64,000 nucleotides of DNA from NCBI RefSeq assembly GCF_003334385.1, contig NZ_QOWN01000003.1. The stretch is one strand, 5' to 3'. The stretch is from Escherichia coli. GTDB lineage: Bacteria; Pseudomonadota; Gammaproteobacteria; Enterobacterales; Enterobacteriaceae. Shown here piece after piece: positions 38,101 through 47,100 of this stretch. How positions within the stretch are numbered: position 1 is the stretch's first letter; every line of letters begins with the position of its first letter. The position numbers were made by a program.

Positions 38101-41100
38101 GAGCATATGCCAGCCGATTTTATGCAGCGGGTTAATCTTAATGCCGGGCTTACTGGAGTCGACCCACCACAGGGTGAAGGCTTTTTTGGGATCTTTCGGT
38201 TGCGGATCGCGCGCCAGCACCAGCATATACGGGTACTCTTTCGCACCGGTAATAAAGGTTTTTTGTCCGTTGATGTAGACCTTGCCGTTTTTACGCGTGT
38301 AAGTGGTAGTGGCACTGTTGTTATCTGAGCCAGCACCTGGTTCCGTCAACGCCAGGGCATAGGCGGGATCACCCGTTTCCAGGGTGCTCTCTGCCGTTTT
38401 ACGTAGCTGCTCTGCAGAACCGAAACGGCGCATACTGTGAATACATTGACCGTTGGTAATTAAAAATGCCGGAGCACCGCATTTTGACACTTCCATCAGC
38501 GCCAGCATTTGGGTGACGTAATCCGCAGGGATACCACCAAATTCTTCCGGCACGCCAAGCATGGAAATACCGTTATCCGCCAGCGCCCGCATAAACTCAC
38601 GCGGATATGTCCCGTTTTGATCGCAGGTGCGGAAATACTCTTCCGGAAAGTTAGTCGTAATCAGTTCGCGAATACTGGCCAGCAGCAGTTCTTGTTCTTC
38701 AGTTAAAGAAAAATCCATCATTATACTCCTGTTAATGAGCCGCTTCAGGCAGGACAAAACCCATCGCCGCATCGATAAATAATCTTTCGTCCATCAGTTT
38801 GAGTTCTGGCGAAATCACTGGGGTGAAATCCATTTTGTCGAGAATATCTTTTTGTAAATCGACGCCAGGGGCGATTTCGATTAAATGCAGGCCGTCTTCT
38901 TTCAGCGTGAATACTGCGCGCTCAGTGATATAACGAACATCCAGCCCTCGCTCGAGAGCGATTTTTCCGCTGAAAGTAATTTCCGGTAGTTCCCGAATAA
39001 ATTTCTTCACCCGTCCTTCCTGGACGATATTTAATTTGCCGTCGGTAATTTCTGTTTTTAAACTGCCCGCAGTTAATGTGCCGCAGAAAATGATTTTCTT
39101 CGAAGTGGCACTGATATCAATAAATCCACCGGTGCCCATGATTTTACCATTGAATTTATGCACGCCGACGTTACCGTGCTGGTCGACTTCAGCAAAACTC
39201 AAATAACAAACATCCAGACCGCCACCGTGATAAAAATCAAACTGGGACGTCATATCCAGAATGGCACGGGTATTCACGTTCGCGCCAAAGGCGATCCCCT
39301 GTGAAGTAATTCCGCCAATCGGACCTGTTTCTACCGTCAGAATAAAGTCATCAGCACAACCTTCTTCTCGGGCGACCAGGCCAATGCCGTCAGCAATACC
39401 GACGCCGACATTCCCCACCGCGCCTTTACGCATTTCGAATAATGCGCGCCGCGCAACTAATTTACGTTGGTTTAGGGGCAGGCTAAGTTTGGTACTGTCA
39501 TCAAGGGTGAAGTCACCAGAAATAAAGCGGTTAACCGGTGCACCGCCATACAGTTGGGTTTGATCCGGATCGACCACCACAATATCCACCAGATAACCCG
39601 GAATACGGACAGATTTAGGATGCAGCGTGGCTTTCTTAACCATTTTCTGCACCTGCATCATCACAATACCGCCGTTATTGTGCACCGCCTGGGCAATAAC
39701 CAATGCGTCGAGATACATCACCTCATCTTCAAAAGTGGCGTAGCCTTCACTGTCGCAGGTGGTAGCGCGAATGAAGGCAATATCTGGCGCAATCGCTTTG
39801 TAATAGAGATATTCTTTGTTATCAAACTCGACCAGTTTAATCAGGTCTTCTTTAGTGACTTCATTCAGTTTGCCGCCTTGCTGGCGTGGATCGACAAATG
39901 TCCCGATGCCAATATCACTAATAATACCAGGCTGGTGGGCTGCGGCGGCGCGTAAGGTTTGTGTAAGTACACCTTGTGGGTAGTTATAAGCAATAATTTT
40001 ATTTTGTTCTGCGAGTTCAGAAATACGCGGCGATTGTCCCCAGTGACCACATAATGCCCATTTCACCAGACCTTCTTGCGCCAGAGGACTAATACCACGG
40101 TCGGCGCGATCGCCAAGCCCTGTTGGACTAATAATCGATAAATTACGTGGTGTTTGAGTCTGTTTATATTTATCAGCAAGAGCAGTAATTAACGTGGTGG
40201 CTTCCAGAATACCGCCGCCAGCGCCTAACACACAAAGTGTTGCTTCGTCGGGAATATAATTCACCGCTTCCTGTGCCGACAGGACCGGCACTCGTCCATT
40301 AATACGAGGTGGTTTTACAGGTTTCATTGTTAATTCCTGATTCAGATGTGATTTTCCCTACGCCAAATGGAGAATTAGCGCACAGAGACTCACGAAATAT
40401 TTTTATTAAATACGATTGAATATATTTTTTAGTTCGGCGGGGAGGGTGTTCCCGCCGAAATATTATTGCTTATGCCTGGTGTAAAATAGTTAATACCGTG
40501 CGCAAATCATTTACCGAGATTTGCCCTGGCGCAGACGCTTTTTTTACCGCACCAAAAGTTGCCGCCGAGCCAAATACTTCACCAGCCAGACGAGAAATTA
40601 CGCCAGTTTTTGCCATCGACATCGTGATAATTGGACGATCGGCATACTGCTCCTGCATCTCCAGGGTCGCGGCAAGCAACGTCAGCACATCGCTGGTACT
40701 TTGCGGCATCAGCGCAATCTTAGGAATATCGGCGTCGAAGGATTGCATTTTGCGCAGACGGGCAATGATTTCTTCGGCTTCCGGCGTTTTATGGAAGTCA
40801 TGGTTGGACATGACTACTTTCACATCATGCGCGTGGGCGTAGGCGACGGTTTCTTTAACCTGATCATCACCGGTAAATAACTCCAGATCGATCATATCAA
40901 CCAGGCCGCTGTCGATGGCTGCACGATTGAGTGCAATATAAGCCTCGGTGGAAATCGCCTGCTCGCCGCCTTCTTTGGCACTGCGGAAGGTAAACAGCAG
41001 CGGTTTTTCTGGCATGGTCTCACGGAGAATTTTTGCTGCCGCCATGACAGACTCCACATTGGAGAGGTCGGCATAGTGGTCCACACGCCATTCCAGAATA

Positions 41101-44100: not shown

Positions 44101-47100
44101 TTGATCGACATAGTGTATGACATGCCTGCAACAAATTGTCCGTACTGTGCCAGCCACTGGCTAACCAGATAAAACGTTGCCATTGAGATATAGCCATATA
44201 AGGTATAACTGGCTAAATCGATAATTGAACAGCGATGTTCCGTAGAGCTGGTGGTTTTCTTTATGACAGGTAAGCGACGACCCGGATGGGGTGGGAACGT
44301 ACAACGGTATAAAAACAGAGCGTTAATAAACATAATGCCTGCAGCAATCATAAAGGACCAACCGAACCACAGTTCAGCCCACACTAACAGGCTAATGATT
44401 AGCGGTAATAAAAATTGTCCGCTGGAAACAAATGCTTTAATTAAAATATTGGCTGTCCCAGGTGAGCGTGGAAAAGCTTCCATCAAACTGGGATAAGTGC
44501 CTGCATCGAGAAAACTGTTTGCCATTCCCGCCAGAAAGCCAAAAACATAAGCGATAATGATGTTATTGGTCTGCAGGATGCCAAAAAAGAAGGCCATATA
44601 GCAGCACATCCCGAGCATGATAAAAGGGCGGCGACCAAAGCGATCGGATAATAATCCTGCAAAAAGCAAGACACTTAATCGACCAATGCCCAGCGATGAG
44701 ATAACTATCGAGACACCCGCGGCATTAGTCTGCCAAAGTGTCTCCAGCGAGGCCATATTCAGGCTCATCAAAAGGACGCCCATACCATGCACCAGGTAAT
44801 TAAAATACAACCCAAGTGCGGTAGGGAAATAGGGATTTTTCATAGGTTCTACTTAGCAAAGGTGCTTTAAAAAGTGAAGCGATGTTGTGTCAGCATCCGT
44901 TCATTATTGTTGTAACAACGACAATTCCTTTCTGTGGAAAAATTAACAAAGCCGCTCCAGATCGTGTGCATATAATTCAGCAGCTACCGATTGATAGATC
45001 TTCCAGTCAATAAAATTGCCATCAGGGTAGACTCGTTGAAATGCGGTTAAGTCGGGGAAAAAACGCATGGTGTTGTTGCCGATGCGGTTATTTATTTTCT
45101 CTATGATGGCATGAAGATGTTTTTTTCTTTGCTGACGCATAGCCAACAGTTGCTCGACTACACGATCAGGAATGGCACACTTGCCATTTTCCCACTGACG
45201 CCAGCTTTCACTGTCACCGGTCTGGGCAATCCAGGTCGCGCATTCATCAATAGTCATGGCAAAAATATGGCGGAGTGCCTGGAGTTCATAAGCGTTCATC
45301 GTGTAATGGCTGCATGAAATAAACAATAAAATATAAATAACATTATCAGCCTGCTGACGGCTTGAAGAGAGTCACAGTATCTTGTGCAACATTATTGGAA
45401 AGAGTGAGGGGCGAGGTAGCGAAGCGGAAAAATGTTAAAAAAAAGCCCATCGTGGGAGATGGGCAAAGACTACACACAGCAATTCGTTGTTTCACTCAGG
45501 GGATTTCCATGCTTATAAATCAATATGTTGATTTATAACCGTGAGCTAATAGTAGGCATACGGACTTTTTGCGTCGATCAGATTCGTCTCATTAGTTTAA
45601 AAACTGTAAAGAATTTGCGACAGGTACTACCAGCTGAATGGCGGTAAGCAGGAAAATATGGGGAAGAGCAAGCAAATATCAATTAGCGGTGGTTAACAAT
45701 CAGGCGGCAGAGCCGCCTGATGAGAAATTACTTATTCGGTTTCTCGATTTCGCCAAGTTCTTCGAGAATTTCTTCCGGTTGGTCCGTCGGCGGCGGGACT
45801 TCTTCCACCCACGCGGCAAACAGACGCCAGGAAACGGCTAACAGAACCGGACCAATAAACAGACCGATCATCCCGAAAGCAATCAAACCACCAATAACGC
45901 CAGAGAGAATCAGGATCAGCGGTAAATCGGCACCCATGCGAATTAACATTGGGCGGATGACGTTATCCAGCGTGCCAACCACACCGCTCCACACTAACAA
46001 TACCGTTCCCCAGGTGGTATCGCCAGTCCAGTAGAGCCAGATAATCGCCGGAATCAGTACCGGCAACGGGCCAAGCTGGACAAGGCAGGAGAGGATCATT
46101 AACACCGTTAGCAACGTTGCATAAGGTACGCCGGATACGGCGAGGCCGATACCGCCAAGCACTGCCTGTACTAACGCCGTCACCACCACACCCAGCGCCA
46201 CCGCGCGGATAGCCTGTGCCGCCAGCAGCACGGCGGCATCTCCGCGAACGCCTGCCAGACGGGTTGCAAAATGGCGAATGCCTTGTGCCACCTGTTCACC
46301 GCGCCAGTACAGCAGGGCACTGAAGAGAAGCATCAGCGCACAATGCACCATAAAGCGCCCGATATGCGCCGCCTGCCCAACGAACCAGGTGGTGGTGGTG
46401 CCAATATAAGGGCGGACTTTCGCCATGATCGCCGTCCCCCCCATATCCAGCAAGTTGTGCCAGCCTGCATACAGCTTCGCGCCAATCACCGGAATGGTAT
46501 TAAGCCACGCCAGATCGGGTAACGTCATGTCACCGCTGGAAATGGCTTTAATTAGCGGGCCGCTGCCGTCGACGATACTGTTAACCAGCAAAGCAATAGG
46601 GATGATAAACACCATCACTAATAACAGCGTCATCACCAGAACGGCGAGAGAGCGGCGGCCAAACATGATCTTTTGCAAACGTAACAATACCGGCCAGGTG
46701 GCGATAACCACCGTACCGGCCCATGCAAAGCCGAGAATAAAGGGTTGAACAATCCACAGACATGCCACAATCATGATGGCTAAAAACAGCACCGAAAGCA
46801 GAATTTGTGCGACATCCCTGGGCTGACGAACATTTACCATAACTACTTTTCACCTTTTTTGTGCGTCAAATCGTCGACGCGACGTGAACACGCGAAACTC
46901 ACCTGCATAATGATGAGCAATTTCAGCGGTTTTTAACAGGCCGATTCTGCCCTTAATTCTGATGGGCGTGTTAGAAAAAAATGTGGTACAACAACTCAGG
47001 CAACACGCAAACGATTTACTCGTCGTATTTCAAGTTGCATGTGCTGCGGCTACGTTCGTTCACCCCAGTCACTTACTATTGTAAGCTCCTGGAGTTCACT

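Follow-up and report, generated by a model that had tools for sequence, protein, structure and literature searches.

The ydiM-ydiN-ydiB-aroD genes of Escherichia coli as a proposed module for hydroaromatic acids, with a possible extension into ydiF-ydiO and ydiQRST-fadK

A stretch of 64,000 nt of Escherichia coli DNA (contig NZ_QOWN01000003.1 of assembly GCF_003334385.1, hereafter the window) carries the adjacent genes aroD, ydiB, ydiN and ydiM, which code for a dehydroquinate dehydratase, a quinate/shikimate dehydrogenase and two carriers of the major facilitator superfamily (MFS). We propose that ydiN-ydiB-aroD, with ydiM upstream, is the E. coli version of the bacterial 'qui' module for hydroaromatic acids. 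On balance, we favour the view that quinate, shikimate or dehydroshikimate are the substrates of YdiN and YdiM, with inward transport as the probable direction, that YdiB and AroD interconvert these compounds, and that ydiN-ydiB-aroD form one transcript under an activator-dependent promoter, with aroD also expressed constitutively. The linkage of the four genes is far beyond chance, and the feature is real and non-random. Conserved and rearranged neighbourhoods in several phyla strongly back a functional link between YdiN/YdiM-type carriers and YdiB/AroD, and very probably the unit also takes in the downstream genes ydiF-ydiO and ydiQRST-fadK.

In the proposed mechanism, YdiN and YdiM would act as proton-coupled MFS carriers for quinate, shikimate and/or 3-dehydroshikimate at the inner membrane, with import more likely than export. 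With NAD(P), YdiB oxidises quinate to 3-dehydroquinate and turns shikimate and 3-dehydroshikimate into one another, and dehydroquinate is dehydrated to dehydroshikimate by AroD. Since E. coli lacks a dehydroshikimate dehydratase, the products would feed either the chorismate pathway, as salvage of plant- or microbe-derived compounds, or the adjacent CoA-dependent genes. The transporter hypothesis as such is not new; it has been in print since 2006 and 2009 and was analysed in 2023 (PMC4585142, PMC2672614, PMC10588857).

Gene organisation and encoded proteins

Gene coordinates in the RefSeq annotation and in the list of open reading frames (ORFs) are concordant (Table 1). They bear out exactly the initial annotation, which had placed aroD, ydiB and the two MFS genes in one orientation with gaps of 30 and 11 nt. 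The 30 nt between the ydiB stop and the aroD start contain the ribosome site of aroD, and in the 11 nt between the ydiN stop and the ydiB start an AGGAG ribosome site follows immediately after the ydiN stop codon. For ydiN, the ORF list gives a GTG start at 43408, while the ATG at 43402 is the start conserved across genera and has an AAGGAG Shine-Dalgarno sequence 8 nt upstream. A longer spacer of 226 nt separates the ydiM stop from the ydiN start. A scan of the interval from ydiM to aroD detected no terminator-like sites. Judging by the gene spacing, the lack of such sites and the reported co-expression, it is almost certain that ydiN, ydiB and aroD share one transcript, which would start at an activator-dependent promoter within the 226-nt spacer. 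In addition, aroD must be expressed constitutively, since it encodes the only biosynthetic dehydroquinase of the cell.

The GC-rich hairpin 3' of aroD (-18.6 kcal/mol, z -4.5) is kept in Escherichia, C. amalonaticus and Kosakonia, and its 5' arm is missing in C. werkmanii. Because a U tract is absent on the aroD strand, transcriptional read-through from aroD into ydiF is possible.

The window is DNA of E. coli K-12, and its interval 39000-46000 matches strain MG1655 with 100% identity. This interval was found in 5426 of 5426 complete E. coli genomes, in 5320 of them with a coverage of at least 80%. In the laboratory strain ET12567 (NZ_CP045457.1), an IS4-like ISVsa5 insertion splits the match into two pieces. 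One Logan assembly (P0007) contains a 668-aa call that joins the YdiN and YdiB domains at 99% identity; as the 11-nt gap is out of frame, this fusion is probably a frameshift or assembly artefact.

The enzyme activities of AroD and YdiB are established in the literature and the PDB. In type I dehydroquinases, Lys170 is the Schiff-base lysine and His143 the general-base histidine, and both catalytic residues are present in AroD (H at residue 143, K at residue 170), which matches TIGR01093 with 292.2 bits (cut-off 139.3). YdiB scores 669.9 bits against the quinate/shikimate dehydrogenase equivalog NF009390 (cut-off 349). Its residues 1-288 match PDB 1NPD/1O9B over the full length (E 3.7e-194), and it is the crystallised enzyme of these entries. 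The closest solved relative from outside the enterics is the shikimate dehydrogenase PDB 3TNL (319 bits), which we take to be the Listeria enzyme. The carriers YdiN and YdiM are paralogous MFS proteins with 36% identity (E 8e-86). PF07690 (MFS_1) is the precomputed assignment of the YdiN cluster, and a crude hydropathy count yielded 12 hydrophobic spans for YdiN and 10 for YdiM.

In all Enterobacterales loci with ydiM, the gene ydiL is its immediate upstream neighbour. Its product matches PF08965 (205 bits) and PDB 1S4K and resembles anti-CRISPR-associated Aca2 repressors (E ~1e-14); it may regulate the cluster.

Gene neighbourhoods of carrier homologues

The contigs encoding seven YdiN homologues with identities of 42-63% were examined. 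A shikimate-dehydrogenase gene is located within 10 kb of the carrier gene in all seven contigs, and a dehydroquinase gene is present in six of them; the seventh locus ends right after the dehydrogenase gene. The gene order differs between these loci. The Telmatospirillum locus (L002), whose carrier shares 52% identity with YdiN, has the make-up of a classical catabolic cluster. It encodes a TetR regulator, a type II dehydroquinase, a QuiC-like dehydroshikimate dehydratase and a shikimate dehydrogenase, and the carrier gene has a chemoreceptor gene beside it. In locus L004, a shikimate dehydrogenase, a YdiM-like carrier (54% identity to YdiM), a type I dehydroquinase and a second MFS protein are encoded in one string, so that the carrier gene stands between those of the two enzymes. 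This string is preceded by a LysR gene and by a gene for a 692-aa flavoenzyme resembling OYE and FadH/2,4-dienoyl-CoA reductase (4832-6910, plus strand), of which L064 encodes a 65%-identical homologue. This flavoenzyme is a candidate ene-reductase for dehydroshikimate or shikimate.

A shikimate-kinase paralogue is encoded upstream of the carrier in L006 (9314-9955) and L008 (7570-8235). A shikimate-kinase-like gene (Pfam SKI) is situated between ydiL and ydiM in L031 (3053-3568, plus strand) and L033 (2408-2971, plus strand). This gene occurs in Serratia, Brenneria, Symbiopectobacterium and Prodigiosinella and is not found in the Yersinia or Dickeya loci. Its presence suggests that shikimate, once imported, enters the chorismate pathway by phosphorylation, with salvage as one fate. 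Given the contexts of the seven YdiN homologues (such as L002, L004, L006 and L008), uptake of hydroaromatic acids is favoured as the common function.

In Yersinia, Serratia, Brenneria, Dickeya, Symbiopectobacterium and Prodigiosinella, the gap between ydiM and ydiN measures 1.6-1.9 kb and contains a LysR gene divergent from ydiN. The effector domain of its product matches PDB 5TED (Lmo0488, the QuiR protein of Listeria) with an E value of 3e-64, compared to ~1e-26 for the next LysR proteins. A QuiR-type regulator also accompanies the module in Bacillota loci. In Listeria, QuiR responds to shikimate and activates the qui operons, whose enzymes are of the YdiB and AroD types (10.1101/2025.04.08.647683).

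Comparison with known systems and published data

The closest described counterparts are the Listeria operons qui1 and qui2, controlled by QuiR (Lmo0488). In these operons (Prezioso et al. 2018, as described in bioRxiv 10.1101/2025.04.08.647683), an NAD-type quinate/shikimate dehydrogenase resembling YdiB is paired with a type I dehydroquinase, and the E. coli cluster with its 30-nt gap has the same pairing. Unlike Listeria, E. coli, Citrobacter and Kosakonia show neither quiR nor a dehydroshikimate dehydratase of the QuiC-like class, so that no protocatechuate would be made, and in E. coli aroD also provides the only biosynthetic dehydroquinase.

Catabolic quinate/shikimate clusters such as Corynebacterium qsuABCD, Acinetobacter quiBCXA-pca and fungal qa/qut likewise unite a transporter, a quinate/shikimate dehydrogenase and a dehydroquinase in one regulated cluster. 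They additionally encode a dehydroshikimate dehydratase, feed the beta-ketoadipate pathway, mostly use a type II dehydroquinase and employ carriers of other MFS subfamilies. The Telmatospirillum locus belongs to this type, whereas E. coli is devoid of the downstream steps.

ShiA is the proven shikimate/dehydroshikimate importer of E. coli, an MFS protein for which transport was measured. The substrate class proposed for YdiN and YdiM is the same, but ShiA belongs to a different MFS subfamily and is not linked to aro genes. The shikimate titre rises slightly, and to a similar extent, when either shiA or ydiN is deleted (PMC8788726).

Published observations on the E. coli genes are in line with a shared function. 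Johansson and Lidén (2006) found ydiB, aroD and ydiN to be upregulated together in a shikimate producer under carbon limitation (summarised in PMC4585142). YdiN, YdiL and YdiM were grouped with aro genes through operon rearrangement, and ydiN and ydiB deletion mutants grew poorly in minimal medium with shikimate (Hu et al. 2009; PMC2672614). Deletion of ydiN led to 1.3-fold more shikimate (Lee et al. 2021; PMC8788726), as would follow from a loss of re-uptake. A gene of the shikimate pathway adjoins about 75% of the YdiM/YdiN homologues (Khalfaoui-Hassani et al. 2023; PMC10588857).

Taken together, the proposal of the initial annotation that YdiN, and perhaps YdiM, import a substrate for YdiB and AroD is sustained with regard to the functional link, to which the neighbourhoods, the QuiR-type regulator in relatives and the published co-expression and mutant data all point; the hydroaromatic substrate and the inward direction are putative. 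The linkage of the four genes holds as well, but as a description of the unit they are incomplete: a 226-nt spacer with conserved boxes separates ydiM from ydiN, aroD is also a housekeeping gene and the unit is likely larger.

Conserved boxes and candidate regulators

The spacer between ydiM and ydiN contains three copies of the motif TGCAAKAT on the coding strand (43621-43628, 43600-43607 and 43527-43534), all of them invariant in an alignment of Escherichia, Citrobacter and Kosakonia. Two copies, both in the form TGCAAGAT, are present upstream of ydiQ (36489-36496 and 36416-36423) and are likewise invariant. In both regions, the distal and the proximal box are 73 nt apart, and the proximal box lies at a similar distance from the start codon (125 nt for ydiN, 119 nt for ydiQ). 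The window features 14 copies of the motif compared to 6.2 expected, five of which fall inside the 541 nt of the two spacers. As the motif was derived from the ydiN region, the ydiQ region served as an independent test, in which an estimated ~0.04 copies are expected by chance.

Boxes upstream of ydiN and in the ydiP-ydiQ spacer were also found in Yersinia, Serratia, Brenneria and Prodigiosinella, and in Dickeya in the ydiP-ydiQ spacer only. In Sutterella wadsworthensis DSM 14016, the 1365-nt gap between ydiQ and ydiN (L085, 5290-6654) has no ORF of at least 100 aa and no remnant of ydiP or quiR. It contains a TGCAAGAT and a TGCAATAT box 21 nt apart, which is the spacing of the two distal boxes of E. 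coli ydiN. The boxes are not universal; none occur in S. seckii (L043), L006, L007 or the Bacillota loci.

A local alignment of the regions upstream of ydiN and ydiQ scored 24 (shuffle mean 16.7, reached by 0 of 300 shuffles). Because an unrelated control region also scored 24, the case for a shared element is built on the conserved boxes and the identical 73-nt spacing and not on the alignment score. Judged by these features, the promoters of ydiN and ydiQ seem to be under common control. Separate promoters under unrelated control, initially named among the findings that would speak against a common unit, did not emerge in silico, since ydiN and ydiQ share the box array.

Asymmetric, repeated boxes of this kind suit an AraC-type protein, and YdiP would be the obvious candidate binder. 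The ydiP gene is kept in the cluster across Enterobacterales, and homologues with 35-38% identity are encoded divergently from a CoA-transferase operon in Lachnospiraceae. Counting against YdiP as the binder, ChIP-exo analysis in glucose M9 medium gave five weak YdiP sites, none of them in the ydi locus (PMC8464067 supplement).

A scan for the sigma-70 consensus resulted in 7 sites compared to 10.5 expected, none convincingly placed. A weak candidate promoter of aroD in the 3' end of ydiB (CTGGCA-17-TATGTT, found by eye) is conserved no more than coding constraint explains. A riboswitch or leader in the 226-nt spacer was considered and rejected: no Rfam match with E <= 1 was obtained save RprA upstream, and the spacer folds like its shuffles (z 0.46).

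Points against the proposed function and alternative explanations

Several observations weigh against the function proposed here. In classical work, aro mutants of E. coli reportedly failed to use quinate, in contrast to Klebsiella. No curated NCBIfam transporter family reaches its cut-off for YdiN or YdiM, and the matches to TIGR00895 (aromatic acid:H+ symporter) are partial and amount to 39 bits for YdiM and 41.4 bits for YdiN against a cut-off of 418.55. Despite this, TCDB files the two proteins under 2.A.1.15.12/13 (PMC10588857). With no curated transporter cut-off reached, the sequence alone does not name their substrate. No transport assay of YdiN or YdiM was found in the open-access literature, to which the literature search was confined. 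The growth phenotypes of Hu et al. (2009) could be polar effects on aroD.

The regulatory and catabolic parts of the module count against it as well. A gene for QuiR is absent from the Escherichia, Citrobacter and Kosakonia loci, and a tblastn search of the window with the Yersinia QuiR-like protein revealed neither quiR nor a remnant (best hit E 0.37, located elsewhere). This absence is a lineage-specific loss of the shikimate sensor in these three genera. A tblastn search with the QuiC-like protein of L002, which covers this dehydratase class only, gave no match in any Enterobacterales locus. Since relatives carry the QuiR-type gene and the window does not, the E. coli genes are a reduced descendant of a QuiR-type qui module; lacking both QuiR and the dehydratase, this module is truncated and may be poorly inducible.

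Export instead of import is an unlikely alternative. In that case, YdiN and/or YdiM would release by-products such as quinate and dehydroshikimate, or surplus shikimate, which YdiB and AroD form when flux through the pathway is blocked further on. Johansson and Lidén (2006) proposed YdiN as a transporter of shikimate or by-products, with export of aromatic by-products included (summarised in PMC4585142). A ydiM deletion sensitises cells to isoprenol, TCDB lists YdiM as a putative exporter (PMC10588857), and the weak NCBIfam similarities of YdiN and YdiM include the efflux families EntS, MdfA and EmrB. By contrast, the clusters that house homologues are catabolic and inducible by substrate and include genes for a chemoreceptor, a dehydratase and a kinase, as is typical of uptake, and deletion of ydiN raised, rather than lowered, extracellular shikimate (PMC8788726).

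It is improbable that no dedicated unit exists, with aroD being biosynthetic, ydiB a redundant paralogue, the MFS genes unrelated and their adjacency an inherited synteny of no present function. The loss of quiR, the missing catabolic outlet, the constitutive need for aroD, the low number of sigma-70 consensus sites and the respiratory and metal-related phenotypes of YdiM would fit such a situation. Yet the linkage survives rearrangement of the gene order across Alpha-, Beta- and Gammaproteobacteria and Bacillota, the cluster is present in every complete E. coli genome, the boxes upstream of ydiN are conserved across genera and co-expression has been reported.

Equally doubtful is a role of YdiM, perhaps also YdiN, as carrier of a metal or metal chelate, such as copper for the biogenesis of the bo3 quinol oxidase, with an indirect aro link: experiments tie YdiM to bo3 oxidase activity, copper uptake and isoprenol tolerance, ydiM mutants having lower oxidase activity and impaired copper uptake kinetics, and the protein has Met-rich transmembrane motifs, but the same study leaves the cargo open, finds shikimate-pathway neighbours as the strongest genomic signal and describes homologues fused to chorismate mutase (PMC10588857), and other homologues are encoded inside operons between shikimate dehydrogenase and dehydroquinase genes.

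Proposed extension into ydiF-ydiO and ydiQRST-fadK

We scanned a genome collection with YdiF as anchor and scored 80 loci with the proteins of the window. In untruncated Enterobacterales loci, ydiN-ydiB-aroD-ydiF-ydiO, ydiP on the opposite strand and ydiQRST-fadK are intact, preceded in most cases by ydiL-ydiM. In two Sutterella species (Betaproteobacteria), fadK-ydiTSRQ adjoins ydiN-ydiB-aroD-ydiF-ydiO, and the rest of the E. coli neighbourhood is absent; judging from the sequences, this block looks as if it had moved as a unit. Locus L003 encodes an MFS protein, ydiF, ydiO, ydiQ, ydiR and ydiB in one string. In L007, an AraC gene is followed by two MFS genes, ydiF, ydiO, ydiQ, ydiR, ydiB, aroD and genes for ApbA, MaoC and VOC proteins.

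YdiF homologues with 57-65% identity were found in 38 loci from Bacillota, Actinomycetes and others. The proteins encoded most often beside them are an ApbA/PanE-type reductase, in 25 loci, followed by a MaoC-type hydratase in 21, a type II dehydroquinase in 19 (NF003805 with 169 bits, cut-off 146) and a small VOC protein in 17; a YdiB-type dehydrogenase is present in five loci and a type I dehydroquinase in two. The loci often add a TRAP or YdiM/N-type carrier and an AraC regulator 35-38% identical to YdiP. As a dehydroquinase neighbours YdiF in different phyla, and the dehydroquinases belong to two non-homologous families, YdiF may act on a hydroaromatic-derived acid. The adjacency of dehydroquinase and YdiF genes across phyla argues against inherited synteny, which would hardly explain it. 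The type II dehydroquinase homologues in the Bacillota operons might have a different substrate.

Among these loci, one apparently uncharacterised operon recurs (Table 1). It consists of a divergent AraC gene, followed by genes for a YdiF-like CoA-transferase, a MaoC hydratase, an ApbA/PanE-type reductase, a small VOC protein and a type II dehydroquinase, and a TRAP transporter or a YdiM/N-like MFS protein is often encoded with it.

The proteins of the extension are currently labelled as anaerobic fatty-acid beta-oxidation (ydiFO, ydiQRST, fadK; PMC3967523) and are acknowledged as poorly characterised (PMC6412132). In the open-access literature, no work that ties ydiF, ydiO or ydiQ to shikimate or quinate was found. 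YdiF is a full-length match to PDB 2AHU (1188 bits, E 0); the work behind that structure reportedly assayed YdiF with short-chain acyl-CoAs only. YdiO scores 787 bits against NF008997, its next best match being the crotonobetainyl-CoA dehydrogenase CaiA (452 bits). The second-best NCBIfam match of FadK is a cyclohexanecarboxylate-CoA ligase (417 bits, under its cut-off).

The E. coli genes caiTABCDE/fixABCX constitute the carnitine-crotonobetaine system, in which CaiB is a family III CoA-transferase. A carrier, a CoA-transferase, a CaiA-like enoyl-CoA reductase, a CoA ligase and a FixABCX-like chain of flavoproteins are shared with the wider ydi locus, where all of them are linked, the likeness being one of homology. 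The two systems differ in that YdiF is a family I CoA-transferase.

A functional unit of about thirteen genes, (ydiL)-ydiM-ydiN-ydiB-aroD-ydiF-ydiO, ydiP and ydiQRST-fadK, that serves a CoA-dependent anaerobic pathway for hydroaromatic acids is put forward tentatively, as the less likely form of our proposal. Here, the qui module would import and interconvert quinate or shikimate, the CoA-transferase YdiF and the ligase FadK would activate a hydroaromatic acid, and CaiA-like YdiO together with FixABCX-like YdiQRST would reduce the enoyl-CoA of, for example, shikimate or dehydroshikimate. Relatives with MaoC, ApbA, VOC and AroQ genes might dehydrate and reduce the intermediates further. In enteric and gut bacteria, hydroaromatic acids would thereby act as an anaerobic electron sink, with products of the dihydroshikimate or cyclohexanecarboxylate type, and the TGCAAKAT array, possibly bound by YdiP, would co-regulate both halves of the unit. 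In keeping with this, older work reportedly found that lactobacilli reduce quinate to dihydroshikimate and that gut flora reduces it to cyclohexanecarboxylate.

The proposal also fits the demonstration that Eggerthella lenta and S. wadsworthensis respire shikimate to hydroshikimate by reducing the enoate double bond (bioRxiv 10.1101/2022.12.26.521950). S. wadsworthensis (L085) carries ydiN-ydiB-aroD-ydiF-ydiO and ydiQRST-fadK, as does E. coli. Two points speak against the thirteen-gene pathway: the enzyme induced in E. lenta is a fumarate-reductase-like flavin reductase and not an acyl-CoA dehydrogenase system, and the correlation seen in Sutterella is one isolated case, from a genome with many reductases.

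Features of the locus and neighbouring genes

Table 1 Coordinates of the aroD-ydiL region and its proposed extension in the window, and of related features in other loci
Feature	Position	Strand	Assignment and basis
aroD	40470..41228	-	type I 3-dehydroquinate dehydratase; RefSeq, TIGR01093, catalytic residues
ydiB	41259..42125	-	NAD(P)-dependent quinate/shikimate dehydrogenase; NF009390, PDB 1NPD/1O9B/1VI2
ydiN	42137..43402	-	MFS carrier, candidate hydroaromatic-acid transporter; Pfam MFS_1, gene context
ydiM	43629..44843	-	MFS paralogue of ydiN
ydiL	44943..45299	-	Aca2/YdiL-family helix-turn-helix protein; PF08965, PDB 1S4K
ydiM-ydiN intergenic	43403..43628	-	three TGCAAKAT boxes; probable activator-dependent promoter of ydiN-ydiB-aroD
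GC-rich hairpin after aroD	40433..40459	-	not a canonical terminator
ydiF	38732..40327	-	CoA-transferase of family I; proposed to belong to the unit
ydiO	37567..38718	-	CaiA-like acyl-CoA dehydrogenase/enoyl-CoA reductase; NF008997
ydiP	36613..37524	+	AraC-family regulator; candidate TGCAAKAT-box binder
ydiP-ydiQ intergenic	36298..36612	-	two TGCAAGAT boxes
ydiQ, ydiR, ydiS, ydiT and fadK	31237..36297	-	FixABCX-like electron-transfer flavoprotein system and acyl-CoA ligase; annotation
QuiR-type LysR gene	L032 5212-6111	-	also in L030, L031, L033-L035, L038, L040, L044, L086, L089
Recurrent YdiF operon	L048, L052, L055, L056, L060, L063-L066, L068, L072, L075, L082, L083		Bacillota, some Actinomycetes

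The genes aroH (DAHP synthase; 26433-27479, minus strand) and ppsA (PEP synthase; 28802-31180, plus strand) are located just past fadK. PpsA supplies a shikimate-pathway precursor, and the closeness of the two genes may be a coincidental clustering of aromatic-pathway genes. Between ydiK and ydiL, the window encodes the small RNA RprA (45435-45542, minus strand; RF00034 with 118.5 bits, gathering score 70), a known gene that has no relation to the cluster.

Conclusion

Taken alone, the four-gene finding matters little, since each of the four genes already has an annotation and the transporter hypothesis dates back 20 years. What is added here is the QuiR-type ancestry, the evidence for an extension into ydiF-fadK and the shared regulatory element; the larger unit may be a new part. 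Quinate and shikimate are abundant in plant diets, and their gut-microbial reduction to alicyclic acids is without assigned enterobacterial genes. The genes ydiO, ydiQRST and ydiF have long been poorly characterised, and metabolic engineering assumes fatty acyl-CoA substrates for their products. Strains for shikimate production could gain from the removal of a defined route of re-uptake and diversion. If the extended reading is true, the label 'anaerobic fatty-acid beta-oxidation' for ydiFO, ydiQRST and fadK would be incorrect or fall short, shikimate respiration in Sutterella would be accounted for by the same locus, and about ten y-genes as well as a widespread Bacillota operon would gain a physiological substrate.

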